From Candidatus Aenigmatarchaeota archaeon (lineage in GTDB: Archaea; Aenigmatarchaeota; Aenigmatarchaeia; Aenigmatarchaeales; JACQIB01): a DNA stretch of 64,000 nt. The position numbers and the translations under genes were made by a program. The notes below the pieces were generated by a model, which was given only the letters and a program-made list of their open reading frames with translations, was not told the DNA's origin and did no database searches. The stretch covers positions 48,931 to 112,930 of the forward strand of contig JACQIB010000005.1 of NCBI GenBank assembly GCA_016198755.1, read 5' to 3'. Positions 226 to 14,547 of this stretch are shown piece by piece (the stretch's first letter is position 1; the number at the start of each line of letters is the position of its first letter).

Positions 226-576
226 CTAAGATTCTGCACGTGAGAACAAAAGGCTTTTGGTTGCTCCCCCCAGCATGCTGAAAATAACCATTATAGCTGG
301 CCCAAGCAAAAGAGAGAGGAAGTCTGAGGTTGGAAGGAAAATAAAAGGTAAAAATTCAGACAAAATAGGCAGGGAAAAATAAACAATAAGGAAGAGAATG
401 CCTCCGAAAATAGAGGCTATAAAAGCGCTGAAAATATTTTTTGTAAAAGTTGGGCCGCGAGCTCCCAAAAATCCAGTTGCTGCACCTGCAATAATAAAGT
501 TCCATGGATAAATAAAAAACCCTAGCAAAAAGCCCAAACCAGCTCCTGCTATAGTTCCATAAAAGATATTTTTCAT
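226..576 (-). CDS. small polytopic membrane protein, unknown function
   Basis: 116 aa, ATG start, about 4 Gly/Phe-rich hydrophobic segments. Its start overlaps the stop of the upstream 846-aa gene by 4 nt (translational coupling). Confidence 0.6.
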   Translation of the reverse strand: MKNIFYGTIAGAGLGFLLGFFIYPWNFIIAGAATGFLGARGPTFTKNIFSAFIASIFGGILFLIVYFSLPILSEFLPFIFLPTSDFLSLLLGPAIMVIFSMLGGATKSLLFSRAES

Positions 577-3098
577 TTTACTGCCTCTTTTTTAGTTGTA
601 GTTGTTTCTGAGGGAATAAGTGCTTCCCTCATTTTCTCTGGTGTAAGGCTTGAGAAAGTTTTTGACATATCCTTTGGCCAGCTTATTGTACCCTCCCAGA
701 AGGCTTGGATTAAGGTTGCAGGATCAGCCTCTGAAAACCCCGACTTAACAAGCGCTTTTGTAGCAGTGCTTTCCCCTCCTGTCAAAACCGCCTCCACAAC
801 TGTTATTATGTCACTGGTCCCCCAGATTTTCAGATACTCGCGAGCATAATCAACATCCACATAACAATAGTTTGAAGCTTTATCCCCCAAATCTGTTTTG
901 TCCATTGCAACAAAAACTGTTGGCTCACCCTCATAATCCTGAACTTTCCAGATTTTTGCAGTGCCCATACAGGGTCCAACCAAATGGAAGCGGGGATTGG
1001 GGGGGATTGACATTAGCGCAGCCTGTATTCCTGCAAACCTTTCTAACCCAAGCGGTCTCCAGCTGCGCACAAAAAACTTTTTAGAATCATTGTTAAGGTA
1101 AATAGGTTTCTCAAACCTCTGCCCATGTGCATACAAACATATAGAATTATCTGTGCAGGTCTCTTCTACAGTAGCCTGTGTTATTTCTCCTTTCCACCAC
1201 CAGCCGCGCACATTTGCAAACGCAGTTACATCCAGAGTCACTACTTTATTTACCTCCAGCTTACCAAACTGCATTGGTATTGTTACTGGGAGCGCATTTG
1301 TGTTCTGCTCTGCAAAACCTATGAACCGCATTCTTTCTACTGGAGCTGTGCCAACAACGTTCCCTGCATCATCTAAAATTTCCTGCTCCTTGAAAACATA
1401 ATTATCCAAATAATCCCCATAGTAAGCTTTTGACCATTCATAATTGTCAGATTTCATTGTATTTTGCGCCAGCTTGGTTATCCTGTTTATCTCCTCCTCT
1501 GTAGGTGCTGATGTCTTATACACAATTTTTACCTTCTGCCCAAGCGTTTGTTTTGAAATACGCTGCTGCACTTCAAAAACAAAATTCTCGTCCACCACTC
1601 TCGCAGGATCTTCCTCAAACATTTCCTTTATTATTTTGTATTGCAAAAGCTTTGAGTCACGCGGAATAAACGCTGATTGAGCAGTGTTTTCTGAAAGCTG
1701 TCGCAAGTATTTCTGGAAAACTGTATTATCTACATAACTCTCAGACTTGAAACCAAGCTTTTTGGCAACAGTTGCCTTAAGCCTTGTGTAGGGGTGGATA
1801 GCCTCCAGTTTTGCCCAATTTTCCGCAGTCATCCTGTCTCCAAGCGCATCCACAAGTCCATTCCTTTCCACATAATCCATATTATGCCTCTCCACAGCAT
1901 ACCCAAGACTGCTCAATGAAATTTTAAACTTTTCCCACTTCTGTATAAGTGGTTTGTATCCTTCCTTGAAAAATTGTGTCTGGGAAATTTCAAACTCACG
2001 TACAACACGCGCAGACGTCACATCCTTGTAATGGATAAGGTCTTTGTCTTTCCAATCTGTAGAAAACATTTTCCTGAGCCTTGCAGCCTCATTAGGCTCT
2101 GCAAAATCATTCAAATACGTTTCGAAAAGCTCTGTTGGAGTATATTGAAGGGTTCCGAAGCCTGCCGGAGGTATTGGATCCATTGTTTCGGCTATTTCAA
2201 TTATTTTTCCCCCCTCTTCTTTGAAGTGTATATACCTTACTGTTCCATCATTGTCTATAATCTGTAGTGGTATTTTCTTTTTTGATATTGGAATTTTCCC
2301 GTCATTTGTAAGTACTGAAAAAACCTTAATTCTCGACCCCTCTGGTATTTCTCCTGCAAGCTCTGCAGAGCCCAAATCAGCAATATACACAGAATCATCG
2401 AAAAAGCCTATTTTTGAAAGGGATCCCACTTCTGTTTTGCCTATCCTTTTGTAAGCTGTGGTTACAAGCATGTCTATTCCTCTCTCCTGCTTTTTTGCTA
2501 TTATTGATGGATCCAGATTCAAATCCTTCGAAAGAGCTTCACCCCCGCCGCGTGCATTCTTTTCAACAAATTCCACTCTTTCAGAATTTTTTATGGCTGC
2601 TCCAGCAGAGCGGAGGAATTGATTGGTTTTGTAACCAGCTTCCGCTGCTCCGCGTCCAATTATTTTCGAACCCCCAACCAGAAGTGCTTTTCCAGAGCGG
2701 AAAGCTCCCCAGAAAACTAACTGCCCGCCTGCTCCACCGCTCCATGGATAGCTCTCTTCCCACATTGCAGCACCACCTGAGAAAAATCCCTCCGGAAAGC
2801 GCTCATAATAAACCTGATACTGCGGAACAGAACCCCCCCAGAAAGCTCTCCAATATCCTTCAAGTCCATCAGTGTGTTCTTGGCAGAGCTTTACATCAGC
2901 TGTATCATAGTAAATAGGATCTGTTGGCTGGGAATCTCCATTCCAGTAAGGGAAATCTGGAGAGGAAACTCTATCTACTCCTCTGGAAAGCCCAAGAGCT
3001 GTCTGGTTTGCCAATCCTGTACATTCCACAGAACCGAAAACATTCATTAAAACAATAAACAAAGCAAACAAAAACAATATTCCAACAACAACCTTCAT
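573..3098 (-). CDS. large N-terminally anchored or secreted surface protein, unknown family
   Basis: Long ORF. The track start at 3113 is GTG. The ATG at 3098 gives MKVVVGILFLFALFIVLMNVFGS (signal/anchor helix) with GAGG 7 nt upstream. It has a Gly-rich segment (GGAAMWEESYPWSGGAGGQ). It is the last large gene of the pilus-like operon. Confidence 0.8.
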   Translation of the reverse strand: MKVVVGILFLFALFIVLMNVFGSVECTGLANQTALGLSRGVDRVSSPDFPYWNGDSQPTDPIYYDTADVKLCQEHTDGLEGYWRAFWGGSVPQYQVYYERFPEGFFSGGAAMWEESYPWSGGAGGQLVFWGAFRSGKALLVGGSKIIGRGAAEAGYKTNQFLRSAGAAIKNSERVEFVEKNARGGGEALSKDLNLDPSIIAKKQERGIDMLVTTAYKRIGKTEVGSLSKIGFFDDSVYIADLGSAELAGEIPEGSRIKVFSVLTNDGKIPISKKKIPLQIIDNDGTVRYIHFKEEGGKIIEIAETMDPIPPAGFGTLQYTPTELFETYLNDFAEPNEAARLRKMFSTDWKDKDLIHYKDVTSARVVREFEISQTQFFKEGYKPLIQKWEKFKISLSSLGYAVERHNMDYVERNGLVDALGDRMTAENWAKLEAIHPYTRLKATVAKKLGFKSESYVDNTVFQKYLRQLSENTAQSAFIPRDSKLLQYKIIKEMFEEDPARVVDENFVFEVQQRISKQTLGQKVKIVYKTSAPTEEEINRITKLAQNTMKSDNYEWSKAYYGDYLDNYVFKEQEILDDAGNVVGTAPVERMRFIGFAEQNTNALPVTIPMQFGKLEVNKVVTLDVTAFANVRGWWWKGEITQATVEETCTDNSICLYAHGQRFEKPIYLNNDSKKFFVRSWRPLGLERFAGIQAALMSIPPNPRFHLVGPCMGTAKIWKVQDYEGEPTVFVAMDKTDLGDKASNYCYVDVDYAREYLKIWGTSDIITVVEAVLTGGESTATKALVKSGFSEADPATLIQAFWEGTISWPKDMSKTFSSLTPEKMREALIPSETTTTKKEAVK

Positions 3099-3117
3099 TG
3101 CTTCCTCAGGCACTCTA

Positions 3118-3384
3118 TCACCCTGCGCAGCCGCAGGTTTTGTTTACCTGCTGCTCAGTATATCCAAGCCTGCTTTGCAAATCCCCAAAAGTATACTGCT
3201 CATTGCACTGTATGTTATAATTTTTACAGACAGGTGCAAACTTTGAACAGCAGGCTAAAAGGGCTCCATAGTCTCCGCCCTGTGATATAGGTAAGTATAC
3301 AAAAAAATAAAGTATTGCAGACAGTGCAACTATTAACACAAGCACTATTATAAGCGCTGTTGTTGTGTTTATTGGCATCTCCAT
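3118..3384 (-). CDS. prepilin-like small protein, Cys-rich C-terminus
   Basis: 88 aa: MEMPINTTTALIIVLVLIVALSAILYFFVY followed by a soluble part with 6 Cys. 4-nt gaps to both neighbours. Confidence 0.6.
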   Translation of the reverse strand: MEMPINTTTALIIVLVLIVALSAILYFFVYLPISQGGDYGALLACCSKFAPVCKNYNIQCNEQYTFGDLQSRLGYTEQQVNKTCGCAG

Positions 3385-3388
3385 GATA

Positions 3389-3754
3389 TCACTTCACAGC
3401 AATATTTGAGCTACATATCTGCCCGCAGTTTGCCTTGCACTCATTCCATGCTGCGGAATCTGTCTCCCCAAAGTCTGAGATAGATCTTCCTGTCCTGTCA
3501 GAGCAGAACTGGCGCAGCCCAGGCTTTGTTTTATCCCCAGGAACCTCTATAAACCTCTGATCTTCAAGTATTCCTGCAGAAACTTTACATCCAACCTGAG
3601 CCCATTTCCCGCAATAATTCACTTTATTCACATCATCCCCGGGTTTTTGGCCAAGCTGCAGGGCTATTACAGCAATTGCCCCTACTATAATAACTATCAC
3701 AGCAAAAATAACAAAGTTCTTAAGTGTGCTTGGTGCTTCAGAATCCCCTTTCAT
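3389..3754 (-). CDS. prepilin-like small protein, Cys-rich
   Basis: 121 aa. It starts MKGDSEAPSTLKNFVIFAVIVIIVGAIAVIAL, a short charged N-terminus followed by one hydrophobic helix. The soluble part has 6 Cys. Confidence 0.6.
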   Translation of the reverse strand: MKGDSEAPSTLKNFVIFAVIVIIVGAIAVIALQLGQKPGDDVNKVNYCGKWAQVGCKVSAGILEDQRFIEVPGDKTKPGLRQFCSDRTGRSISDFGETDSAAWNECKANCGQICSSNIAVK

Positions 3755-3786
3755 GGATTTAGGTAGTATTTGATAGGAGATAAACC

Positions 3787-3915
3787 TTACGCTGGGTTTA
3801 AATTTCCTAAATAAGGCAGAACAAACAGGGTTATTACAGCCACAAGCACTATTACAGCAGCTGACATTATCAGTATTTTTGCGAGCAGCATTATATCCCC
3901 CTTTCCTATTTTCAT
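3787..3915 (-). CDS. 42-aa single-helix micro-protein (not in ORF track)
   Basis: My translation: MKIGKGDIMLLAKILIMSAAVIVLVAVITLFVLPYLGNLNPA*. Its ATG overlaps the TGA of the upstream gene (ATGA). Confidence 0.4.
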   Translation of the reverse strand: MKIGKGDIMLLAKILIMSAAVIVLVAVITLFVLPYLGNLNPA

Positions 3916-4217
3916 GTGCTCACCCTTTTTGCCGGCTTGCAGTATGTGCCTTCACATACATTTCCCGCCGGACAGTCCTTTCCTGAAGCACAGCCGCACT
4001 GTTTTTCAGAAATTCCTTCACTCGCTCTTACTATACAAATGAACCCTTCTGGGTTGTCCTTACAGTTATCATTTGTTGAGCAAGCAGCTGTCAGAGTTGT
4101 ACTTGTGTTTCCATCTACAGGCCTGTTGTACAGATTCTGGGAAAAAGCTAAAACAACCATAATAAACACTAATATTCCACCAACAAGGAGTGCAGCTTGG
4201 TCAAAATCTCCCTTCAT
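3912..4217 (-). CDS. prepilin-like small protein, Cys-rich
   Basis: The track start at 4226 is GTG. The ATG at 4217 gives MKGDFDQAALLVGGILVFIMVVLAF with GGGTGA 6 nt upstream (SD-like). The C-terminal part has 8 Cys (CSTNDNCKDNPEGFIC...CGCASGKDCPAGNVCEGTYC). Confidence 0.6.
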   Translation of the reverse strand: MKGDFDQAALLVGGILVFIMVVLAFSQNLYNRPVDGNTSTTLTAACSTNDNCKDNPEGFICIVRASEGISEKQCGCASGKDCPAGNVCEGTYCKPAKRVST

Positions 4218-4222
4218 TTTAT

Positions 4223-6046
4223 TCACCCTGTTACTTTTACTGTGGCTGTGTTTATAATGTTGCCCTGTCCCGTAAGCCTTACAAATCTAAATGGATCTGC
4301 TATAAAGGTAGTATCTTTAGTGAAATTCTGCCCGCTTGTTCTGTACAGTTCTTTCCATGTTTTTCTATCAGTAGAAAACTCAACTTTAACTTCATCTCTG
4401 GAAGAGAAAGTTGCTTCTATACTGGCAGAGAGTTTTGTATATTCTTTTCTCAAATCAAACTCTATTTTATCTTTCCCGCAATCATCTCCCAAAGGAACCC
4501 CATTACCGCAGCTGTCTGTTCCGACAATTTCCCCATCCCCCTCTGCAGGCAGTATTACTATAGACCTATCCAAAGCCCCAGCCCTTTTTGCAAATACACC
4601 AGCCTGTATAAGCTTTGGGTCATCTAGGCTGCAGCGCTGAAAATCTGATGTCTTCCGATAAAAACGTTTCCCATCAAAACAGAATGGCTTTCCATCCCCC
4701 TGTCTCTCCTCTTTGAACTCTCCTGCAATGTCCCAATTGAAAATATATATTGTATAGGTTTTCCCTGCATCAAGAGTGGAGAGTGGAGATAACGCAGTTA
4801 TGTGATTTATACCTCCCTTCCCAAGAAACTGCGCAGCTTGTGTCCCTCCACTCTTATAAAATAAGTTTACATTAAGCTTGTTCCCGTTCTCATCTTCCCT
4901 TAGCTGGACCTGTTGGTATTCAGTTATGTTAGAAGCTGCTTTTCCTATACACTCTTCCTTGTTATTGCAGGTTCCAATATCAAAATCAAATCCTGATTTA
5001 TCCTGTATCAATCCTACAAAATCCTCTATAGAAATGCTGTTTGTTACAGAATAATCTGAAATCTCCGTTAGTCTGAGCTCAGGTATCAATGAGCCTGCTT
5101 CTTCTGTTCTCTTAAAGTTTTTCAGATAATAAGAAAGCTGGTCTGCAACAGCTCCGCTTGACAGTGAAGGCTCTGAAGAGTGCTTTGGTATGCGCAGAAA
5201 ATCTATATTGTATTTACAGCCTGAACCGCATTTCTTTTCCTTTGGATTCTCATATGGAACCCATTTAACAAGGTAAAGCATGGTATTGGAACTTGGATAA
5301 AGGGAGGGGGGGCTCTTTCCTTTTTCAAGTTTGTCTGAAACAAGATAAGAACTGTTTGTTATATCAGTCTGCCAGACTGTTATTTTGTCTTCCCCGCCAC
5401 AAAGAGAAGAACAGCTCTCACCCTGCAACGGGCTGGAAACAGAATCTGTTCCAAAGGTTTGTGAACCAACAGAAACGCAGTTGCTGTTCCCAAACTTTAA
5501 GGTTTCCAAAGAATTGTGCACAAAGCGGGAAAGTGTTCCGCAGATTTTCTGACCTGAAAATTCTCTGAGGGAAAGTTGTTTTGTAAGGCATTGTTCATCT
5601 AACAGCGGGGAACACGGAGAGCATGATTGAACAGTTAACTTATCCCTTTCTTTCTGGGATAAATCATTATAATAGACAGGCCTCTGCTTTTCAGAATTCC
5701 ATGGAACATCAAATGTACCCCAGCCTACAATACTGTCTTTGCTGAAAGGAAGGGAAGCACCATGTGGATAGTTGCCGTTGGAAACAAAATCAGATGATAT
5801 ATCCTTTGCTATTTTACATGAAATCTGTGAACTTGTAAGCGGCTGTCCATCCTCTGTTAAATTTATCTGAGGCACAACACCAAGCATATCCAGAAATTCA
5901 AAACCATTTGGAGTTTCAACCCCTGGTTTTGTAGGGAAAGGATTAAAATCCAAGTTAATTAGCTTCAAGAAAGATCCAAAGAGTAAAAGAGCTATAACTG
6001 CTGCAACAACAATAACAAGCAGTGTTATAGTACTAATCCTGTCCAT
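4223..6046 (-). CDS. surface protein, paralog 1 of a Cys-framework family; C-terminal beta-sandwich (F5/8-type-C/CBM-like) tip
   Basis: 607 aa with N-terminal helix MDRISTITLLVIVVAAVIALLLFG. It shares ordered motifs with the next two genes (SCKIAKDISSDF; CSPCSPLLDEQCL; GKTYTIYIFNWD). The C-terminus ends ...DPFRFVRLTGQG, reminiscent of discoidin-type domains (weak call). Confidence 0.85.
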   Translation of the reverse strand: MDRISTITLLVIVVAAVIALLLFGSFLKLINLDFNPFPTKPGVETPNGFEFLDMLGVVPQINLTEDGQPLTSSQISCKIAKDISSDFVSNGNYPHGASLPFSKDSIVGWGTFDVPWNSEKQRPVYYNDLSQKERDKLTVQSCSPCSPLLDEQCLTKQLSLREFSGQKICGTLSRFVHNSLETLKFGNSNCVSVGSQTFGTDSVSSPLQGESCSSLCGGEDKITVWQTDITNSSYLVSDKLEKGKSPPSLYPSSNTMLYLVKWVPYENPKEKKCGSGCKYNIDFLRIPKHSSEPSLSSGAVADQLSYYLKNFKRTEEAGSLIPELRLTEISDYSVTNSISIEDFVGLIQDKSGFDFDIGTCNNKEECIGKAASNITEYQQVQLREDENGNKLNVNLFYKSGGTQAAQFLGKGGINHITALSPLSTLDAGKTYTIYIFNWDIAGEFKEERQGDGKPFCFDGKRFYRKTSDFQRCSLDDPKLIQAGVFAKRAGALDRSIVILPAEGDGEIVGTDSCGNGVPLGDDCGKDKIEFDLRKEYTKLSASIEATFSSRDEVKVEFSTDRKTWKELYRTSGQNFTKDTTFIADPFRFVRLTGQGNIINTATVKVTG

Positions 6047-7395
6047 TAACCCACCTCAAATAGAGAAACAGAAACATCCCGCAGCTTGTTTTCTTTTATT
6101 ATTTTCCCTTTATCCTGCCAGTTCTCCCGTATACAGTCCCTCTTTGGCTTGCATTCGCTGTCACAAGAATTTGTATCTTTTGTGCAGGCACCGCAGGTTG
6201 GATTTCCGCCGCAAGCGCCAGTACAGTCAGTTGTTTCCCTTTCAGCTGTTATACCCCACTTCCTTATTATAACTCTATACTGTTTTCCAGCCTGCAAAGT
6301 CCCGCTGTCCGAAACAGTTGTGTACAAGTTAAGGTCGTTATAGTTTGGATCCTCATATGTACATACACCTGTGGTTTCCTTCTTGAAAAATCCTTCAGGC
6401 TTTACATTTATACAATCCTCCCCTGTACATGCTCTGTACTTTACGTCATATTTTGTTATTTCTTTTACTTTCTGTGCAAAAGCCAAGAAAGAAATATCTG
6501 CTGAGGGTGTAAAGTAAAAATCTTTCTTTTCCCTTATACCCTCTGTATAGGCGCCTGCAGTTTCAGATCTGGCTGCTGATTTGAGAACATTACCTACAGT
6601 CTCACCTAATTGATCTGCTTCAAAATTCCCAAGCTGTTCTGTTTTTGGGACGCGGGGAAAGTGGAGATTATATGTTTTGCTTGCGCTATCCCAGTAAAGA
6701 ACATAAGAATAGGGCCTTCCATCCTGCACAAGTGCAGATTCTGTATAGGAATCTGAGGTAACCTCACTCTCAGATGTAACATCAGCTTTCCAGTCCTTTA
6801 TCATATCCCCCCCAGGGCAGGTCTCTGAGCAAGCCTGACCAGAGCTGAAAGAAGCACAGTGATCGTTTCCGAACTTTACAAGATCCCCGTTCTGGCTTGA
6901 TATAAAGTTTCCGCAGAGTTTTATCTCAGAAACATTCAAAATTCCAAGATTCGCAGAAACACAGGCCTCATCAAAAACCGAAGGACAGGGAGCACAGATA
7001 GAATTTCTCAAAGTATTTTTCTGTTTTTCTGTGAGTGTCCAGTCTGAACTAAGGTTGAAAATCCCGCCTGAAACAATGCAGGTTCCAAGGAAACAGAATT
7101 CCCTCTGCCCCTTTGTCCCGTATTTTGAAATATCCAATGCAAGGTCCTTTGCTATTGAACATCCAACCTCTGAGGAGGCAAATGTTGGGGAGGAAGAGCT
7201 GATAGGTCTGTAAACCTCAAAAATACCGGGAAAGTCTGCACGCGGGAAAACTGGTAAGGTTGTCCTTGTTGTAACTATTGTTGTTGGAACATTGGGGGGG
7301 TGTAGAGAAAAATATGGAACTGCTATTGCTATTGTTATGCCAAGTGCAACAATGCCCATAACTACTGCGAACAGTTCCCATTTTGTTATTTCCAT
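6046..7395 (-). CDS. surface protein, paralog 2 of a Cys-framework family; Cys-knot-like C-terminus
   Basis: 449 aa with N-terminal helix MEITKWELFAVVMGIVALGITIAIAV. Motifs: GCSIAKDLALDIS; CAPCPSVFDEACV; GKQYRVIIRKWG. The C-terminus is TDCTGACGGNPTCGACTKDTNSCDSECKPKRDC. 1-nt stop/start overlap with paralog 1. Confidence 0.85.
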   Translation of the reverse strand: MEITKWELFAVVMGIVALGITIAIAVPYFSLHPPNVPTTIVTTRTTLPVFPRADFPGIFEVYRPISSSSPTFASSEVGCSIAKDLALDISKYGTKGQREFCFLGTCIVSGGIFNLSSDWTLTEKQKNTLRNSICAPCPSVFDEACVSANLGILNVSEIKLCGNFISSQNGDLVKFGNDHCASFSSGQACSETCPGGDMIKDWKADVTSESEVTSDSYTESALVQDGRPYSYVLYWDSASKTYNLHFPRVPKTEQLGNFEADQLGETVGNVLKSAARSETAGAYTEGIREKKDFYFTPSADISFLAFAQKVKEITKYDVKYRACTGEDCINVKPEGFFKKETTGVCTYEDPNYNDLNLYTTVSDSGTLQAGKQYRVIIRKWGITAERETTDCTGACGGNPTCGACTKDTNSCDSECKPKRDCIRENWQDKGKIIKENKLRDVSVSLFEVG

Positions 7396-7515
7396 TTACC
7401 CCCACCCGAAAAGCTTTGGGATATTAGCTCCGCCAAAGACAAGGAATAATGCTGCCACAAGCACTATTATAAAAAATACTATAATACTATAGCTCTCTGC
7501 CCAAACATTGCTCAT
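7396..7515 (-). CDS. 39-aa single-helix micro-protein (not in ORF track)
   Basis: My translation: MSNVWAESYSIIVFFIIVLVAALFLVFGGANIPKLFGWG*. It starts 2 nt after the stop of the 729-aa gene. Its TAA directly abuts the ATG of the 449-aa gene. Confidence 0.4.
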   Translation of the reverse strand: MSNVWAESYSIIVFFIIVLVAALFLVFGGANIPKLFGWG

Positions 7516-7517
7516 AA

Positions 7518-9707
7518 TTAAACCTCTTTTATTGTCATTGTACCTGAACGCTCATTATTCTGCTCATTAACTTCTGTGACAGAGTTTGCGCTGTCTGCGA
7601 TAACTTTTATTTCCTTTACACCAGCAGTATCAGGAGTCCACTGGAAACGCACCCCAAGTTTCTCCCTGCCTGAACCAGACTGCTGCAGAATATCTATAGT
7701 CTGTGTGCTTATTGTTTTGCTGTTCACAACAAGAGCAACTAAAAAGTTTGATACTGGAATGGAACCTCTGTTCTCTATAACAGCATCTATCTGAATCTGA
7801 GATCTTACAACACCGTTTGCTGGTATTGCAAAATCTGAAACTAAAATATCTGTGCCCTCAACTGAAAATGTTGCAGAGCCTTTATTGTTCTCCTCATTTG
7901 TTTCTTCAACCTCCTCTTTTGTGTCTGCGAAAACAACAACCCTGTCTGCGCCAAGTCCTGGGCTAAGTGTAACAGTCTGCCTGATTGAACCTTTTGCTGG
8001 TATATTTGGAGCCGTTATCTTTTTCGAGTCTGCGCCAGAAGAAACAGTAACCTCAAAGGCTGAAGTTTCAACATCCCCAATATTTGCAATATCGTATGTA
8101 ATAGTAACAGAGGGGTTGGGATTTGTTGGTGTGGCTGTTAGTTTCTGTGGTTCGAGAGAAATGGATTTTACAACAATATCAGGCCTTAATTGACCTAAAT
8201 CAACCAGAACAAGAGAATAGTCTATATAGCCCCCGAACTGCTTCCAGCTGTCTAATCCCTGCCCACCGCACCAACTGCCGCTTACTATACACATATCATC
8301 CTTTATGCAATAACCTTCATTTTTTTCAGATAGAACCGGTGTTCTTTCCCACTTGTTCAAAACAACATTATATCTGTGGTCTGCCCTTAGTAAAGTATTA
8401 GGTTCTACAGAAGTCTTTATTTTAAATGTTCTTAAGTCTTTATTCAGGTTTTTACAATTTACTAGGTCTGAAGCTGTGTAATGAGCAAGTGCTGCATTAG
8501 TATAATATTCCTTATATTTTTTCTCTATTATAGAAGTCGCATAACACATATTCCCTTGGCATTGCTCTGTCGGAGCTATTATATAATCGCCAACACCGCT
8601 CGCTTTTCTATCTCCACCAAAATCTATGTCGGGGGCAATCCTTATTTTTCCTATACGACTTGTGAAATCTTGTGTGAAACTATTTATGTTATACTCTGTG
8701 GCTGGAACAAATGTTGTGTTGTAAATTGTCCTGAATTCTGGTTTTGCAAAACCTGCTGCTGTTGACCTTACAGGAGTGGTTTTAAATGTATCTGCAAGAC
8801 TGAGAGCCACACCCTGCGGAGCTGTTCTTCCCTTTTCATCTCCAAGAGATATTTTGGGTATCTCATAGTGATAAGCTTTGTCGGATTTGTCCCAGTAAAG
8901 TGCCCATGAATACTGGGGAGTGCAGTCTCCTCCTTTGCACTCCGGTGGGAAAGCTGTATTTGAAAGCTTTGTATCATCCACCTCAAGCTCATCTCTTTTA
9001 TTTCCAAATTTGCTTGCCTGCGCTTTCGCATTTTTAACAGAGTCTGCTGCACCACATACTCCACAATCAAAACTCCACTCTGAAGAGCTGGAACATACTT
9101 TATTTCCAAACGCAAAGGAAGCAGCTCCGGGCACTGAAAGGCTGCTGCATAATGGAACTTCAGAAGCATTTAGATGGGAGAGAGCTGCTGTTATGCAAGC
9201 CTCATCAAAATGGGAAGGACAGGGAGTAAAAGAACCTGTATCAGAGCAGTATTCTTTTAGTTTTTTCAGCTGCTCTGCTGTTAAATCCTCTGCTTTCCAG
9301 GGATTACCAGTTGCAGGATTTTTCTCTATTATAAAACGCTCTGTTGCTATAAGTGCGAGGTCTGTGCCCTGTATTTTTTTCTGCTCATCCACAACCCTTG
9401 GGTTTACACCATGTGCAAGCAAATCAGCCTGCATTGCCCTTGCTATTTTGCAGGCTATTCTGGTTGATGTTTCAGGCTGGGAATCCTGAGTAGGGTCTGA
9501 TTTAGCTAAGGAACCAAAAGGTTCGCTTACGAAAACAGTAGCATCTCCGCCCCCGTTAGTACCGGGTTTATGGCCGCTGACAATATCCTGAATCCACTTG
9601 TTTATGTTTTGCATATTTGGAATAACAACAACAAGAAGGGCAGCAGCAAGCAGAATGACTAGAATAGCTATAATGGCTGCTGTTAAGGTATTAATTGCCC
9701 CTCTCAT
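7518..9707 (-). CDS. surface protein, paralog 3 of a Cys-framework family, with two C-terminal CARDB-like domains
   Basis: 729 aa. The N-terminus MRGAINTLTAAIIAILVILLAAALLVVVI resembles a class III (prepilin-type) signal. Family motifs: IACKIARAMQADL; TPCPSHFDEACI; DHRYNVVLNKWE. The C-terminus has two repeats with CARDB hallmarks (IANIGDVETSAFEV...ETNEENN and IENRGSIPVSNFLV...EVNEQNN). Confidence 0.85.
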   Translation of the reverse strand: MRGAINTLTAAIIAILVILLAAALLVVVIPNMQNINKWIQDIVSGHKPGTNGGGDATVFVSEPFGSLAKSDPTQDSQPETSTRIACKIARAMQADLLAHGVNPRVVDEQKKIQGTDLALIATERFIIEKNPATGNPWKAEDLTAEQLKKLKEYCSDTGSFTPCPSHFDEACITAALSHLNASEVPLCSSLSVPGAASFAFGNKVCSSSSEWSFDCGVCGAADSVKNAKAQASKFGNKRDELEVDDTKLSNTAFPPECKGGDCTPQYSWALYWDKSDKAYHYEIPKISLGDEKGRTAPQGVALSLADTFKTTPVRSTAAGFAKPEFRTIYNTTFVPATEYNINSFTQDFTSRIGKIRIAPDIDFGGDRKASGVGDYIIAPTEQCQGNMCYATSIIEKKYKEYYTNAALAHYTASDLVNCKNLNKDLRTFKIKTSVEPNTLLRADHRYNVVLNKWERTPVLSEKNEGYCIKDDMCIVSGSWCGGQGLDSWKQFGGYIDYSLVLVDLGQLRPDIVVKSISLEPQKLTATPTNPNPSVTITYDIANIGDVETSAFEVTVSSGADSKKITAPNIPAKGSIRQTVTLSPGLGADRVVVFADTKEEVEETNEENNKGSATFSVEGTDILVSDFAIPANGVVRSQIQIDAVIENRGSIPVSNFLVALVVNSKTISTQTIDILQQSGSGREKLGVRFQWTPDTAGVKEIKVIADSANSVTEVNEQNNERSGTMTIKEV

Positions 9708-9744: not shown

Positions 9745-9957
9745 CTATACAGGTATGGAAGCACAGGCTCCTGATCCAAACTGAAATTGTGGGCCAAGAG
9801 GCAGCCAGAATATAACAGGGCAGATTATGCTGCTTAGTATAGTTCTGTTGAAAATTATTAATATCACAGCTATTACAATAACTGTTATTGCAACATATAT
9901 CAGTATATCCGGGGATTTCTGCACAGCCTCTGTTTTTGCCTCATCTTCTTGCACCAT
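9745..9957 (-). CDS. small membrane protein (prepilin-like?)
   Basis: The track ORF 9745..9987 overlaps the upstream gene. The internal ATG at 9957 gives MVQEDEAKTEAVQKSPDILIYVAITVIVIAVILIIF..., an acidic head followed by a hydrophobic helix. Confidence 0.45.
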   Translation of the reverse strand: MVQEDEAKTEAVQKSPDILIYVAITVIVIAVILIIFNRTILSSIICPVIFWLPLGPQFQFGSGACASIPV

Positions 9958-9965
9958 TGAAACAC

Positions 9966-10178
9966 CTAAATTATAAGCCAGGCGCACTGGCTCTTTGCAT
10001 CAGAAAAGGGTGGGGGCTTTAAAATACCTTTCTCATGGGCCTGTATACATAATCCTCTAAAGGGCGGGGTTCCGCCAGTGGAAGAGAGAAAAAAGCCTAT
10101 GAAAAGAATGGAAGCTACAAGAGCTACCAAAATTAAAATAACCAGATTCGCACCAGACATCATTGGCCATGTAACCAT
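9966..10178 (-). CDS. prepilin-like small protein
   Basis: 70 aa: MVTWPMMSGANLVILILVALVASILFIGFFL, then a short soluble tail with 2 Cys. Its ATG directly abuts the stop of the upstream micro-ORF. Confidence 0.5.
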   Translation of the reverse strand: MVTWPMMSGANLVILILVALVASILFIGFFLSSTGGTPPFRGLCIQAHEKGILKPPPFSDAKSQCAWLII

Positions 10179-10328
10179 TTATCTCAACCTGCTCCCCCAT
10201 TTTAAAAACTCCCAGATTTTATTCATAGGAATGACCTGTGTTAGTATAATAATAGAAATAATAACAGCAAATACAACCAAGAGTATTACGAAAGCAGGCC
10301 TTGTTGCAAATTCTGATCTTGTCTGCAT
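10179..10328 (-). CDS. 49-aa prepilin-like micro-protein (not in ORF track)
   Basis: My translation: MQTRSEFATRPAFVILLVVFAVIISIIILTQVIPMNKIWEFLKWGSRLR*. It has a charged head plus one helix and is tightly packed between its neighbours. Confidence 0.4.
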   Translation of the reverse strand: MQTRSEFATRPAFVILLVVFAVIISIIILTQVIPMNKIWEFLKWGSRLR

Positions 10329-10329
10329 T

Positions 10330-10500
10330 TTAAACACCCAGAACAGCCCTTATAGGGTATAGCAGCCCTGAGGGGTTTGTTATTGTTGTTTTTTGGGAAA
10401 GTACAAAAGCCAAAATAAGTGCAACAATTATACCTAAAGCTGCCATAAGGAATATAAAATTCCATGCACCCTCATGCAAAGTTTCTATATCAAAAGCCAT
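10330..10500 (-). CDS. 56-aa single-helix micro-protein (not in ORF track)
   Basis: My translation: MAFDIETLHEGAWNFIFLMAALGIIVALILAFVLSQKTTITNPSGLLYPIRAVLGV*. Its ATG overlaps the TAA of the platform gene by 1 nt (TAATG). Confidence 0.4.
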   Translation of the reverse strand: MAFDIETLHEGAWNFIFLMAALGIIVALILAFVLSQKTTITNPSGLLYPIRAVLGV

Positions 10501-12803
10501 TATTTTCCACCTATTGGTACAAGCAGCGGTGCTATAGTGCTCCCAAATACAAGGGAACTTATGCCCCAGCTTACTATGTATACTATTATCCCGAATATTA
10601 ATGTTGTGCCCATTGTCTCCCTTAACCCTATCTCATCCTCTCCGTTCTGTAACCTGTTAAGGAAATAAGCTAACAAAGCAACAGTTTCAATCATATACAG
10701 TCCAACAACCATCTGGAAAGCGCCTGCGGTTATTGGCACTGAACAGCCCCCAGACCCTTGGCACCATGGAAGAACTAATAATTGCTGGGGAGCTGAAACC
10801 GATGCTCCAGTGTTAAGTATGTCATTATACTGAACTCCAAACTGGGTTAAAATCTGTATTATAACCATTGCCATTGTAACAGTTATTCCTGACACTAGAG
10901 GAGCCAAAAACACTGAAAGAAACTTCATACTGGAAATTGTATCCCCTAAAATCTCCTCCAAATCCTCTTTTAGAGTGTGCAAACCTTTCAGGTAGCGGGA
11001 AATTGTAACCATTGCAACAGAAGCTGTTTGCATCCCTTTCTTTCCTGCTTCAGCTATAACTGAAAGCACAGATCTTATCAGTGCTGATGGATAGTACCAG
11101 ACTGAACCAACATCCTTGTCAAACATTGCCCTTTCAAAAGTATATCCAAACTTTGTCATGTTTGCTGTGGTTGTTGTGAAAAGGTCTGCAACCTTCATTC
11201 CTTTTAAACCCTCCACTGACCTGCTCATTGCAGATTCTATTGGAACTCCTGTGCTTAACTGGTTTCCCAACTGGAACAAAGCTACGGAGAACTCCTCTTC
11301 TATCCTCCTTATATCCTGCCTTACTTTTGTTTTTTGATAGCTGTCTAAAATTCCATAAACAGCAGCTGACAATCCAAAGCTCAGTGGCAAAGCAAGAGAC
11401 AGGCTTGTTTCAACTCCAGTTGTAAGCAAAGCATACAAACCTAAAAGAAAGAGGGGAAGGAAAACTGCAAGTGCTACCGGCCAGACAGGCGTTTCTTTTC
11501 CGGATAAAAAGAATTTTCCAAGCCGTGGAACCCCTTTAGCTAAAGAAATATCTGGCTGGGAAAAGGTTGAGGGCTGGGCTTCCAGTGTTTTGTTTATTAT
11601 AATCCAGAGGAAAGCTGGGAGAGCTATATCGTACATTATAAACAGGTACTCGGGTTTTATTGATTTTGCCAAAAAAATTACAACTATTGGGAACAGAACC
11701 AGCCCCATTACCGGAAGCAGGATTCCCATAGCATGTATAAGCATTATTGGCATGCGCAGGTTTCCTATGAACCTTTTTGCGCGCTCTCTTGTGCCATCCA
11801 GAATAACTGAGAGTGTTTCATCAAAAAGCTCATCTCTCCTTTCAGCCTGCACTGCACTTCCCCTCAAAAGGTTCAAAGCTTCTGAAAAGGGTGGGTTTCT
11901 TTCCTTCCATCTCTCCAAATACTGCCCAAGAGCAGCATCAGCATTTGAATAAGTGCCTAAATTTATTCCCCATAAAAGTTTTTTCAAATCCCAGCTTAAC
12001 GGACCGCGCAGATTTTCTGAGGCAAACTTCAATGCCCCCTCTAAATTTGGGCTTCCTCTCATGTAAATAATCATGTATAAAACACAGAGTATGCTGTCAG
12101 AACCCATTTTCATTGTTAAAACTCTTGAACGTGAAGCAGGGTAAGTTAAAACAAAATACCATGCAAAAATTGAGGATAGGAAAAAAATAAAAAACCCAAG
12201 GAAATCGGGCTTCCCGTTTACACCCAAAAGAGCTCTTCCCTCCCAGCTATAGCTTATAGCCCTCTCATATCTTTTGTCCTGCAAAGCCTGTTTTGCGCTC
12301 TGTAGTGTCTGTTTTGCAAAATCCAGCTTTTCCTTTGTTCCTGCTGTGCTTCTTGTACTCTTAACAAGTTCATCAAAATCACCAACCATGATTACAGCGT
12401 TCTCTTTTGTAGGAGCCGGCTGTATAATATAGCCTGAAGCAAGATAGGCGAAGGAAAAAATCATTAAAATTAAAAGTGCTATAATGGACAGAGCATAAAC
12501 TCCGCGCGCACTTGTAACCATGTACGCATCATCTATATCCTTCTGCAGGCTTTTTTCTGTTTTTTCACTGGGCTTTATTCCCAGTACTTCAGCTCTCAGC
12601 GCTATGCGCTCAAAATAGGTCTGAGGCTTCTGCCTTACTTCCTTTAAAAAATCTGTATAATCCCTCGGTCTTGCAATAACTCTCTCTTTTTTTGGAACAG
12701 AAAGCTGCTCTCTGTCCATAAGCTTTCTGAGCTTGTCCATTCTATCCTTTTCAGCCATCTCCTTTTCTATTTTCTTTTTATCCTTTCCGTCGAAAAACCC
12801 CAT
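10500..12803 (-). CDS. polytopic membrane platform protein (FlaJ/TadC/PilC-like, T2SS-F type) - assignment by topology and context
   Basis: 767 aa. A cytoplasmic charged N-terminus (KKKIEKEMAEKDRMDKLRK) is followed by many TM segments interrupted by two soluble blocks. It sits first in the operon of prepilin-like genes and near the secretion ATPase. I could not verify a diagnostic motif by eye. Confidence 0.6.
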   Translation of the reverse strand: MGFFDGKDKKKIEKEMAEKDRMDKLRKLMDREQLSVPKKERVIARPRDYTDFLKEVRQKPQTYFERIALRAEVLGIKPSEKTEKSLQKDIDDAYMVTSARGVYALSIIALLILMIFSFAYLASGYIIQPAPTKENAVIMVGDFDELVKSTRSTAGTKEKLDFAKQTLQSAKQALQDKRYERAISYSWEGRALLGVNGKPDFLGFFIFFLSSIFAWYFVLTYPASRSRVLTMKMGSDSILCVLYMIIYMRGSPNLEGALKFASENLRGPLSWDLKKLLWGINLGTYSNADAALGQYLERWKERNPPFSEALNLLRGSAVQAERRDELFDETLSVILDGTRERAKRFIGNLRMPIMLIHAMGILLPVMGLVLFPIVVIFLAKSIKPEYLFIMYDIALPAFLWIIINKTLEAQPSTFSQPDISLAKGVPRLGKFFLSGKETPVWPVALAVFLPLFLLGLYALLTTGVETSLSLALPLSFGLSAAVYGILDSYQKTKVRQDIRRIEEEFSVALFQLGNQLSTGVPIESAMSRSVEGLKGMKVADLFTTTTANMTKFGYTFERAMFDKDVGSVWYYPSALIRSVLSVIAEAGKKGMQTASVAMVTISRYLKGLHTLKEDLEEILGDTISSMKFLSVFLAPLVSGITVTMAMVIIQILTQFGVQYNDILNTGASVSAPQQLLVLPWCQGSGGCSVPITAGAFQMVVGLYMIETVALLAYFLNRLQNGEDEIGLRETMGTTLIFGIIVYIVSWGISSLVFGSTIAPLLVPIGGK

Positions 12804-12921: not shown

Positions 12922-14547
12922 ATGGGGCGCAAATCCAGCTTAACAACAGGTCAAAAGGCAAGCATAAGGCATTATGCTGAACAGGGTGAAGGACCTTCTG
13001 GTATCTCCTATTATACAGGCATTTCTCCGAGTAAGGTAAGTTATTATCTGAAATCACTTGAAAGAGAACAGGCTGGGAAAGGCAATGGAAATAGACAATA
13101 TAGAAATAGGAATGGACCTGCTCCGGTGGCTGAGACAGCTACAGAAGCTGGGAAACACGGACGCGGTCCAGGAAGAACAAGTAACTCTACAGTGTTTATG
13201 ATAGAGCAGATGGCTGCGCATGGCTATAATACTGAACAGATTTTAAATACACTGGGAGTCTCTGCTCATGTAGCAGAAAAATATTCTGATTTTGATGTTA
13301 GAGCCTATTTGGAAGCGAAAACTCCAACAGAAGCTGATGTGGAAAAGAAGGTAGATAGAAGGATATTGAGACAGGAAACAATAGAAAAAATAAAAGCCTT
13401 GGCAAGGGAGGGACGCACTATAGCCGGTATAGTGGAGGAAACTGGAGTGAGCAATAGATCTATATCCAAATATGCTGGCGCTGAACTGAATGAACGGTTG
13501 GGGGGAGAGAAGAGACAGGGAACAAGGCTGACTGCTGAAGAGAGGGAAACAATAATAGCTGCTATAGGAACAGGAAAATATTCTGGCCCATCTGAAGTTG
13601 GAAGTGAGTTTGATATTTCCTATCACACAGCAAATGCGCTCTGGAAATCAACGGGTAGAAAAGTAAGAGCTATTGGGGAAAAACCCGAAACAACCAGGGA
13701 GCGAGGCATTAGGCTGACAAAAGAGGAGGCAGCAACTATGGACATGGCTATATTGTCTGGAATATACACACACCCAGCAGATGTTGCAAGGGAGTTCCAT
13801 GTTTCTTACCAGACAGCGCGCATCCACTGGGAAACAGCTAGAGTAGCTGTTACAAAGCCAACTGTCTTGATAGAGCCTCCTAAACCAACGCCACCCAAAG
13901 ATTTGAAAATAGGGATTAGTGCTGCTAATGCTGAGCGGTTGGATACATTATGGGGACAGGGAATCAGGACAGTAAACGGGCTGCATGAGCGCACAGGGTT
14001 TAGTAGGCATATGGTTGGCAGGTATATGGAGGGGAGGGGATTGATATCAGAGAGGAGCAGGAGAGAAGAACAGATAACAAAAGATAACAGGCCTGCTATG
14101 CCACCAGTGATTCTGGAAGATCTTTCAGCTGCGATTATACTACATGCTGGGGAGAAGAAAATGGAAAAGGAAGCTGCAGAACAGACTGCGCAGCATGTTC
14201 TTAACTTTTTTGGCTACTCTAACAGGATTATAGATAATATACTGGAGCCTGAAGACAGGGACATTTTTTATATGTTAGAGGATGCTGGGATAGCTACAAC
14301 AGAAAGAGAGGAAACAACTTTATATGATGGGAGGGAATGGAGAATACACTATTGGGTGTTTAATCATGATAGGATAAAACAGATTTTGGCTCCTCTAAAA
14401 ACTGCAAAGAGAGAGAAAAGTCCTGAAGATGTGTATGAGGAGCTGGATGATGGGTTATGGCATGGTCATGGAGCAGAACCTGTTGAAGGGGTTCATGTTA
14501 CTAACGGGTTGGTAGCAGCTCAGGCTGGAGCAAGAGGCTCTGGTTAA
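12922..14547 (+). CDS. multi-HTH protein (about six helix-turn-helix-like modules plus a C-terminal globular domain)
   Basis: 541 aa. Repeated modules include GISYYTGISPSKVSYYLK, ILNTLGVSAHVAEKY, IVEETGVSNRSISKYAG, RLTAEERETIIAAIGTGKYSGPSEVGSEFDISYHTANALW, RLTKEEAATMDMAILSGIYTHPADVAREFHVSYQTARIHW and LHERTGFSRHMVGRYM. It lies on the opposite strand between the platform gene and the ATPase. Confidence 0.8.
   Translation: MGRKSSLTTGQKASIRHYAEQGEGPSGISYYTGISPSKVSYYLKSLEREQAGKGNGNRQYRNRNGPAPVAETATEAGKHGRGPGRTSNSTVFMIEQMAAHGYNTEQILNTLGVSAHVAEKYSDFDVRAYLEAKTPTEADVEKKVDRRILRQETIEKIKALAREGRTIAGIVEETGVSNRSISKYAGAELNERLGGEKRQGTRLTAEERETIIAAIGTGKYSGPSEVGSEFDISYHTANALWKSTGRKVRAIGEKPETTRERGIRLTKEEAATMDMAILSGIYTHPADVAREFHVSYQTARIHWETARVAVTKPTVLIEPPKPTPPKDLKIGISAANAERLDTLWGQGIRTVNGLHERTGFSRHMVGRYMEGRGLISERSRREEQITKDNRPAMPPVILEDLSAAIILHAGEKKMEKEAAEQTAQHVLNFFGYSNRIIDNILEPEDRDIFYMLEDAGIATTEREETTLYDGREWRIHYWVFNHDRIKQILAPLKTAKREKSPEDVYEELDDGLWHGHGAEPVEGVHVTNGLVAAQAGARGSG

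Follow-up and report, generated by a model that had tools for sequence, protein, structure and literature searches.

Three large cysteine-rich, pilin-like paralogues in a type IV pilus-like operon of an Aenigmatarchaeota archaeon

In the stretch of DNA analysed here (the window, 64,000 nucleotides from a Candidatus Aenigmatarchaeota archaeon), three neighbouring genes most likely encode, judging by their translated sequences, secreted, disulfide-bonded surface proteins with the layout of type IV pilin-like (class III signal peptide) proteins but of very large size. The ORFs of 607, 449 and 729 aa (p607, p449 and p729; Table 1) are present as described in a first-pass annotation, all on the minus strand. 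Rather than encoding free-standing adhesins, the trio belongs to a type IV pilus-like operon, which that annotation had overlooked: genes for a secretion ATPase and a membrane platform lie upstream of the trio on the same strand, with junctions that overlap or abut, and at a TAATG junction the p607 start codon overlaps the p449 stop codon. Each protein would begin with a short leader and a single hydrophobic helix, continuing with a flexible Pro/Thr/Gly-rich linker and a head of about 390 residues, which would be followed by two CARDB domains in p729 or a discoidin-like domain in p607.

Table 1. The three paralogues and associated features, in window coordinates
Feature	Position	Strand	Basis
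FlaI/TadA-type secretion ATPase	14544..16892	-	Pfam T2SSE E 1.3e-17; NCBIfam FlaI 9.8e-38, TadA 4e-33
TadC/FlaJ-type membrane platform	10500..12803	-	Pfam T2SSF E 8.7e-09
Four small single-helix ORFs (56, 52, 70, 80 aa), platform-to-p729 interval	9745..10500	-	Orthologues in L014
p729 (729 aa)	7518..9707	-	ORF; family HMM 4.3e-89
p729 core head domain, ~residues 70-505	8193..9500	-	Alignments
p729 C-terminal CARDB repeats, ~residues 508-608 and 620-721	7545..8186	-	Pfam PF07705 best stretch 620-721; NCBIfam stretch 508-608
39-aa single-helix micro-ORF (MSNVWAESYSIIVFFIIVLVAALFLVFGGANIPKLFGWG), between p729 and p449	7396..7515	-	Translation
p449 (449 aa), minimal family architecture	6046..7395	-	ORF; family HMM 7e-89
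p449 Cys-rich loop, ~residues 386-425	6121..6240	-	Alignment, Cys column frequencies, AlphaFold2 strands
p607 (607 aa)	4223..6046	-	ORF; family HMM 2.1e-83
p607 F5/8 type C-like (discoidin/CBM32-like) domain, ~residues 503-607	4226..4540	-	Pfam F5_F8_type_C E 0.0027
Small Cys-rich pilin-like proteins downstream (104, 42, 121, 88 aa)	3118..4226	-	ORFs/translations
p846, large N-terminally anchored protein	573..3113	-	Conserved downstream partner of the family

The first-pass claim that the trio are paralogues with a common Cys framework was borne out by ten fixed cysteines and by formal alignment, which found significant similarity among the three cores. Composition-adjusted BLASTP gave E = 3e-24 for p607 versus p449, 1e-18 for p449 versus p729 and 4e-12 for p607 versus p729, at about 24% pairwise identity across 290-410 columns, and all five series of motifs quoted earlier align in register. 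The family is rare, amounting to 112 clusters among 1.84 billion representatives, 105 of them at E ≤ 1e-10. It was revealed by an exhaustive HMMER search; a word-index protein search returned two close orthologues only, and a contig profile search with the three-paralogue alignment returned nothing. All three paralogues are retained in a second assembly (GCA_053536735.1, hereafter L014), and dN/dS between the trio and these orthologues is 0.10-0.16; the trio are functional genes under purifying selection. The possibility that the similarity arose by chance or from composition (Cys-rich, low-complexity sequence), or that the ORFs are not genes, is negligible, being ruled out by the BLASTP values, the database clusters and the dN/dS ratios.

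In the numbering of p449, C137, C145, C161 and C193 are invariant across 98 family members, C79, C134, C323 and C328 are found in at least 90% of them, and C180 and C189 in 82-87%. Of the 98 members, 81 have an even number of cysteines (p = 3.6e-11), as does every Cys-bearing protein of the operon, and Cys columns appear and disappear pairwise (phi 0.81 for C79-C134 and 0.75 for C180-C189). This parity and co-occurrence point to extracytoplasmic, disulfide-bonded proteins; used as pairing statistics, they suggest that the conserved head would be held by about five conserved disulfides.

An AlphaFold2 model of p449 (pLDDT 87.2, pTM 0.81) was obtained with a 98-sequence alignment; a run with 11 sequences, which gave a pLDDT of 65.8, was set aside. 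The predicted layout comprises an N-terminal helix (residues 5-29), a Pro/Thr-rich disordered linker (32-56, pLDDT below 50) and, behind it, a globular alpha/beta head of about 390 residues (60-447). That is, the shared core, which had been described as a stalk, is in the model a globular head. Likewise, the supposed Cys-knot tip of p449 turned out to be a variable loop within the shared core, p449 consisting of the core only. The loop is flanked by predicted strands at 373-390 and 431-447, and comparable Cys columns are shared by 15-40% of the family (73% for C421). The statement that the C-termini diverge completely after the shared core holds for the C-terminal modules, which do differ, but not for the point of divergence, since in the alignment homology extends about 60 residues past the W motif, to a conserved final strand (Y-x-D-x-S-x-x-I).

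That the core corresponds to no named domain was supported by every search made with it. No family model in Pfam, NCBIfam or PHROGs matched the shared core, a profile search of PDB sequences with the family gave a best E of 0.33, and Foldseek with the p449 model found no known fold in PDB (best E 0.32) or BFVD (best E 0.035), with TM below 0.12; an Rfam search returned nothing. As judged from the model, the head apparently adopts a new fold. The protein family and its fold are undescribed, and the overall design is already known.

Beyond the core, the two CARDB repeats noticed in p729 were confirmed by Pfam (PF07705, E 1.5e-26, 93 bits versus a cut-off of 22.7 bits, in two stretches); Pfam detected no CARDB in p449 or p607. 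The p607 core runs to about residue 500 and is followed by the discoidin-like domain. This end, earlier read as beta-sandwich-like, has a weak match to F5/8 type C (PF00754, E 0.0027, 18.3 bits), which lies under the 28.2-bit cut-off; the best match among PDB sequences was the AlyQ chain 7d29_A, at E 0.3. A protein of the same subclade (P0030), which aligns to p607 over its full length (E 7e-68 for the whole protein), carries two copies of the p607-type tail; the second copy aligns to the p607 tail at 2e-10, and one copy reaches 30.3 bits against F5/8 type C, above the cut-off. Among the 20 longest members of the 98-member alignment scanned with Pfam, CARDB, F5/8 type C and dockerin domains were found at the C-terminus of different proteins, in agreement with the first-pass view that these modules differ among members.

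The idea of recent tandem duplication with tip swapping was rejected: the paralogues are old, each falling in a deep clade of its own, and conservation is as high in the tips as in the cores. Nor are exchangeable tips the fast-evolving part, given that they evolve no faster than the cores in the comparison with L014. A fast-evolving insert lies instead within the p729 core, at about residues 346-505: across residues 351-500, p729 and its L014 orthologue are 40-46% identical, against 66-86% in the remaining blocks of 50 residues.

Several polar residues of the core are nearly invariant (D88, D142, E143, N177, R288, Y229, Y242 and Y373), D142-E143 lying in an LDExC motif and N177 in FGN, and this pattern hints at a conserved site, putatively for binding or catalysis. 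The conserved head could therefore be an enzyme or active effector on the pilus or cell surface, acting for example against the envelope of a partner cell, with the variable C-terminal modules serving as targeting devices. Such a role would fit the C-terminal CARDB, discoidin and dockerin binding modules, an arrangement also found in many secreted carbohydrate-active enzymes, and the reliance of all cultivated DPANN archaea on direct host-cell contact (Hamm et al. 2024, PMC11291902). It is nevertheless very unlikely: the head resembles no enzyme family in sequence or fold (Pfam, NCBIfam, PDB profile search, Foldseek), and the conserved polar residues may be structural or Ca2+-binding.

The genomic setting of the family is conserved. 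In five related genomes the ATPase gene is adjoined by a platform orthologue, 51-53% identical. G001, G004, G005, G029 and L014 share the gene order platform, small single-helix ORFs, one to three family members and p846 homologue, and wherever the contig extends far enough the ATPase lies upstream. Counting the motor genes only, the ATPase, platform and family genes are arranged together in G001, G005, G012, G029 and L014, and platform and family genes in G004. Homologues of p846 (26-42% identity) lie downstream of a family gene in G001, G004, G005, G006 and G029; G012 gave no p846 match, and the contig of G006, too short to show the ATPase or platform, holds only a family gene and the p846 homologue. 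p846 itself has no match in Pfam or PHROGs. Three of the 104-, 42-, 121- and 88-aa proteins downstream of the trio have K-G-D leaders, with even Cys counts (8, 6, 6). The micro-ORF between p729 and p449 has a positional counterpart in L014, where a gene of 39 aa is called.

The pilin-type N-terminal helix, missed in the first-pass annotation, is a general property of the family. A hydrophobic N-terminal helix was found in 93 of the 96 full-length members, preceded by [KR][GA] in 58 and with an M[KR]G start in 47, and the consensus of the family alignment begins with MKG. The first 25-60 positions of the family profile also match pilin-like ORFs, both small and large, from other loci. p729 has a canonical prepilin-type start (MRG/A), its N-terminus reading MRG/AINTLTAAIIAILVILL. 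The helix is also present in p449, which starts with MEITKWELFAVV (MEITKW...), and in p607 (MDRISTITLLV...), both of which belong to the approximately 40% of the family without the K/R-G motif, so that their processing may differ from that of pilins. The genome encodes a Peptidase_A24 prepilin peptidase (G000:C5:178825-179118; 29.6 bits versus a cut-off of 26.5 bits).

We consider it somewhat better than an even chance that the trio are minor or tip pilin-like adhesins of a type IV pilus-like machine. We infer that a prepilin peptidase would process the proteins, that the ATPase and platform would pull the N-terminal helix out of the membrane, and that the trio would be added in low copy, as minor or tip subunits, to a filament made of the small pilin-like proteins from the same operon; a head of approximately 45-80 kDa cannot be a repeating filament subunit. 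The heads would then make the contact to a partner cell or surface, an adhesin-type role being plausible.

The main rival of this reading is simple membrane-anchored display. That is, the trio could be helix-tethered surface proteins that never enter a filament, held by a plain signal anchor or brought into a bindosome-like assemblage dependent on the pilus machinery, with the heads forming a contact or coat layer on their flexible linkers. In the Sulfolobus bindosome (Bas), binding proteins with class III signal peptides, which are solute-binding proteins of ABC transporters, are displayed via the type IV pilus-like ATPase and platform BasEF. The trio resembles this system in pairing large extracellular binding-type proteins with a dedicated type IV pilus-like ATPase and platform, and the ATPase is weakly BasE-like; its match (7.9e-16) is far below the NCBIfam cut-off, however, and Pfam finds in the trio no solute-binding domain like those of true bindosome substrates. 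Tethered display would also account for the oversized heads, for the members without a K/R-G motif and for the disordered 25-residue linker that directly follows the predicted helix, setting it off from the head, unlike the packed helix of classical pilins. On the other hand, half of the family keeps the exact M[KR]G start, and across genera its genes keep their fixed place among small pilin-like ORFs within a pilus operon. We regard tethered display as possible but clearly the less probable of the two.

Related designs are known elsewhere. PilB and PilC of Streptococcus sanguinis are modular type IV pilins, low-abundance subunits with a large extra module that has an adhesion or glycan-binding role and is exchangeable between relatives (PMC8179133, PMC9934059). 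The trio is similar in having a pilin-type N-terminus that carries a large module, encoded inside a pilus operon. However, PilB and PilC have a complete pilin module (helix and globular head) before the graft, whereas none is predicted between helix and head in the p449 model, in which only the disordered linker precedes the 390-residue head. Moreover, the trio is archaeal (DPANN) and shows no sequence or fold similarity to PilB or PilC; the two are alike only in design. In archaea, type IV filament loci encode an ATPase, a platform, small pilins and a large 'adhesin' together, as does the present locus with its large adhesin-like proteins, and cysteines and extra C-terminal domains have been noted in some archaeal pilins (PMC13705601 and the arCOG-based classification cited there); the trio's head family differs in matching nothing in Pfam or NCBIfam. 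In that study these systems are described as largely absent or unclassified in DPANN (Nanobdellati), a supplementary figure apart. Type IV pilus-like loci conserved in cluster 2 DPANN, including Aenigmarchaeota, were proposed to act in host interaction by Hamm et al. 2024 (PMC11291902), and the locus described here is of the same kind, with a CpaF/TadA-type ATPase and a TadC platform. The main-text passages searched in that paper concern the motor, FlaF, PilA and coiled-coil proteins; a term search of the main text found cysteine, adhesin and large pilin-like proteins unmentioned.

The source archaeon is tiny and probably host-dependent. We know of no cultured Aenigmatarchaeota, and to our knowledge the host-contact molecules of DPANN are almost unknown. 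The family is a concrete, conserved candidate, apparently with a new fold, for the contact end of an Aenigmatarchaeota type IV pilus-like machine; the gain is limited, large pilin-like adhesins being an established idea and the role here being predicted from sequence and model. A more specific reading, which we consider unlikely, combines these elements: one to three paralogues would form a homo- or heterotrimeric, disulfide-stapled cap at a DPANN-specific pilus tip, the polar site formed by the nearly invariant core residues would recognise, or act on, some conserved part of the host archaeon's envelope, and host range would be tuned by the CARDB, discoidin or dockerin modules together with the fast-evolving insert. 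A parallel is offered by some bacterial type IV filaments, which are capped by large minor pilins. If true, the family would give direct access to the way in which Aenigmatarchaeota find and hold their hosts.

In other Aenigmatarchaeota the same slot is occupied by different large cysteine-rich pilin-like proteins. Orthologous loci were located with an ATPase alignment, and 33 of the 46 with enough flank encode downstream at least one large protein with an N-terminal helix and at least 10 Cys. The idea that all these slot proteins form one divergent family was rejected, because hhalign to the family profile matched only the first ~25 residues. The slot that follows the motor genes is a cassette, in which the pilin-type N-terminus stays the same and the large cysteine-rich heads differ between lineages, a pattern expected for host-range determinants.

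The three Cys-rich surface proteins p729, p449 and p607 are encoded by consecutive minus-strand ORFs, and pairwise BLASTP with composition adjustment gave E-values of 3e-24 (p607 against p449), 1e-18 (p449 against p729) and 4e-12 (p607 against p729), with ~24% identity across 290-410 columns. All five motif series by which the first-pass annotation had aligned the proteins were found in register, and together with the BLASTP E-values this demonstrates real homology and excludes chance similarity. The genome contains exactly three copies of the family, every one inside the tandem array. When 1.84 billion cluster representatives were searched exhaustively with an HMMER profile, 112 family proteins were identified at E <= 1e-3 (105 of these at E <= 1e-10), meaning that the family is rare, and a word-index protein search retrieved just two close orthologues. 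Members range from 397 to 1258 aa, most being 450-620 aa long.

Features of the type IV pilus-like locus in the window
Feature	Position	Strand	Description
p846	573-3113	-	N-terminally anchored protein, 846 aa; downstream of trio
Small Cys-rich pilin-like proteins	3118-4226	-	104, 42, 121 and 88 aa; M-K-G-D or K-G-D leaders; downstream of trio
p607	4223-6046	-	ORF, 607 aa
p449	6046-7395	-	ORF, 449 aa
Micro-ORF	7396-7515	-	39 aa, single helix; exactly fills p729-p449 gap
p729	7518-9707	-	ORF, 729 aa
TadC/T2SSF-type platform	10500-12803	-	E 8.7e-09; upstream of trio
Multi-HTH + DUF6015 gene	12922-14547	+	Between platform and ATPase genes
FlaI/TadA-type ATPase	14544-16892	-	Pfam T2SSE E 1.3e-17; NCBIfam FlaI 9.8e-38; upstream of trio

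The 0.89-Mb genome (6 contigs, 89% complete; the window lies on contig 3) is that of a DPANN archaeon. Among named organisms, those with the closest pilus ATPase are nearly all Candidatus Aenigmatarchaeota MAGs, Ca. Aenigmarchaeum subterraneum among them. Four small single-helix ORFs separate p729 from the platform gene. Neighbouring genes overlap or adjoin, with TAATG at p449/p607 and GTGA where the p607 stop meets the start of the 104-aa gene, so that they look like a single type IV pilus-like operon, in which the trio are secreted-type, disulfide-rich proteins occupying a fixed place. The 104-, 121- and 88-aa pilin-like proteins have even numbers of Cys (8, 6 and 6), two of them with the unusual leader M-K-G-D, and qualify as candidate major subunits of the filament. 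At the place corresponding to the micro-ORF, a 39-aa gene is also called in the related assembly GCA_053536735.1 (L014 9881-10000). That locus has two multi-HTH + DUF6015-type genes in the ATPase-platform interval, and in the more distant loci L016-L019 the ATPase directly adjoins the platform. A second T2SSE ATPase, on another contig (G000:C2:190489-191070, minus strand; 91.8 bits, 673-aa frame), outscores that of the operon, so type IV filament-like motors number at least two in this genome.

The shared core, which the first-pass annotation could not assign to any named domain, indeed matched no model in Pfam, NCBIfam or PHROGs. An AlphaFold2 model of p449, built from a 98-sequence alignment (pLDDT 87.2, pTM 0.81), predicts a helix (residues 5-29) joined by a disordered linker rich in Pro and Thr (32-56) to a globular region of mixed alpha/beta structure (60-447). 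No credible Foldseek match was obtained for this model (best PDB E 0.32, best BFVD E 0.035, every TM-score below 0.12), and a profile search of PDB sequences with the family gave no match (best E 0.33). Provisionally, and as judged against PDB and BFVD, the predicted head therefore appears to be a new fold. Some polar and aromatic core residues, namely D142-E143, N177, R288 and tyrosines, are nearly invariant, which could point to a putative catalytic head. We regard this as a weaker rival to the filament-subunit reading given below. What is shown for the family is a pilin-type N-terminus and binding-type add-on domains, and for the trio purifying selection.

The Cys framework is strongly conserved. 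That is, C137, C145, C161 and C193 (p449 numbering) are invariant among 98 members, C79, C134, C323 and C328 are present in at least 90%, and C180 and C189 in 82-87%. Moreover, Cys columns are gained or lost jointly (phi 0.81 for C79-C134, 0.75 for C180-C189 and 1.0 for one insert pair), and the Cys count is even in 81 of the 98 members (binomial p = 3.6e-11), as it is in p729, p449, p607 and each other Cys-containing protein of the operon (16, 20, 16, 6, 8, 6, 6). Even, co-varying Cys of this kind suggest fully disulfide-paired extracytoplasmic proteins.

When the alignment was widened to more members, the homology continued beyond the W motif (GKxYxVxxxxW) up to a conserved last strand, Y-x-D-x-S-x-x-I. 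The Cys-rich stretch of p449, previously read as a Cys-knot tip, lies between these two elements, and 15-40% of members have similar Cys columns (73% for C421). The stretch thus belongs to the shared core, and p449 is a bare core lacking any add-on. By contrast, p729 carries two CARDB domains (93 bits, Pfam). The add-on of p607, ~105 residues long, has a weak F5/8 type C score (E 0.0027). P0030, a member of the p607 subclade, aligns with p607 over its full length (E 7e-68) and holds two copies of this tail, one of them above the Pfam cut-off (30.3 bits), which makes a discoidin-like reading of the p607 tail reasonable, if not proven. Among the 20 longest other family members, a recognized C-terminal add-on was present in five: CARDB in P0019 and P0027, F5/8 type C in P0030, dockerin in P0067 and a DUF7107-like Cys repeat in P0081. 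The C-terminal extensions of the remainder were unrecognized and mostly Cys-rich. Of the proposed conserved stalk with exchangeable tips, a conserved core with optional, exchangeable modules at the C-terminus therefore holds for the family, although only a minority of its members show it.

A hydrophobic helix lies within the first ~60 residues in 93 of 96 full-length members. It is preceded by [KR][GA] in 58 of the 96, and 47 start exactly with M[KR]G, the alignment consensus being MKG. A short leader with K/R-G followed by a hydrophobic helix is the shape of the archaeal class III (prepilin-type) signal peptide. The N-terminus of p729, MRG followed by AINTLTAAIIAILVILL, fits this pattern, and the genome encodes a Peptidase_A24-type prepilin peptidase elsewhere. 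This homologue may process the N-termini, and the ATPase and platform would extract the proteins, to be placed as low-copy (tip or minor) subunits in a filament of small pilins, where they may touch a host cell or a surface. Helix-tethered surface display without filament incorporation is the main rival, and two features favour it: p449 (MEITKWELFAVV...) and p607 (MDRISTITLLV...) retain the helix and lack the K/R-G motif, and in the p449 model a linker follows the helix. The predicted helix does not lie against the head as it does in classical pilins. The observation of the first-pass annotation was confirmed, and its interpretation as an adhesin family gained partial support.

In GCA_053536735.1 (~80% amino-acid identity) the operon is matched gene for gene, with all three paralogues present. 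The trio is 67-80% identical to its orthologues there, as compared with 91% for the platform, and dN/dS is 0.10-0.16 for the trio and 0.07 for the platform. Divergence is fastest in an insert of the p729 core (residues ~346-505, 40-46% identity) and not in the CARDB tips (78-86%). In a FastTree phylogeny of 100 members, p729, p449 and p607 fall into three different deep clades, each shared with other genomes. The paralogy of the three is thus old.

At the level of family and order, the arrangement ATPase, platform, small ORFs, family member(s) and p846 homologue recurs in related genomes, with one family copy each in G001, G004, G005 and G006 and two each in G012 and G029. The exceptions are G012, without a p846 match, G004, whose contig lacks the ATPase, and G006, where a family gene and a p846 homologue are all that the contig contains. 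p846 matched nothing in Pfam or PHROGs. Its homologues (26-42% identity) accompany the Cys-rich family in five related genomes as a conserved partner on the downstream side, and the two may function jointly.

In design, the trio resembles bacterial modular pilins (PMC8179133, PMC9934059) and the adhesin-like proteins with class III signal peptides that archaeal type IV filament loci encode (PMC13705601). This type of locus has already been reported for cluster 2 DPANN, Aenigmarchaeota included (PMC11291902). The main-text passages searched in that study concern the motor, coiled-coil proteins, FlaF and PilA, and we found in them no mention of large Cys-rich, adhesin or pilin-like proteins of this kind. 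The trio represents an undescribed protein family, with an apparently new fold, within a known functional design. As a candidate determinant of host contact in an uncultured DPANN lineage, it holds moderate interest.

We also surveyed 46 loci that have an orthologue of this ATPase followed by no less than 7 kb of sequence. Of these, 33 code for one or more proteins that are at least 380 aa long, carry an N-terminal helix and contain at least 10 Cys, and the p449/p607/p729 family was present at only five. When the family profile was compared with the large Cys-rich proteins of other loci, the hhalign match was limited to the first ~25 residues. The slot is thus a cassette, in which different Aenigmatarchaeota put different Cys-rich heads on a common pilin-type N-terminus. 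Another member of the phylum encodes a tandem trio of ~480-505 aa (L028 14856-19134; 20-21 Cys each, MKG-type starts) with no detectable relation to the family beyond the first 25 residues, so that a second, parallel triplet occupies this slot there. At L022 and L075, the loci of the closest named ATPase orthologues (66-68% identity), the platform is followed by apparently unrelated non-pilin genes with no pilin-like array, and in them the pilin-like cargo genes must be elsewhere or lost. At L019 (2323-6099, G005:C1) the ATPase frame is 1258 aa, extended N-terminally by ~500 residues relative to the 745-782-aa orthologues.
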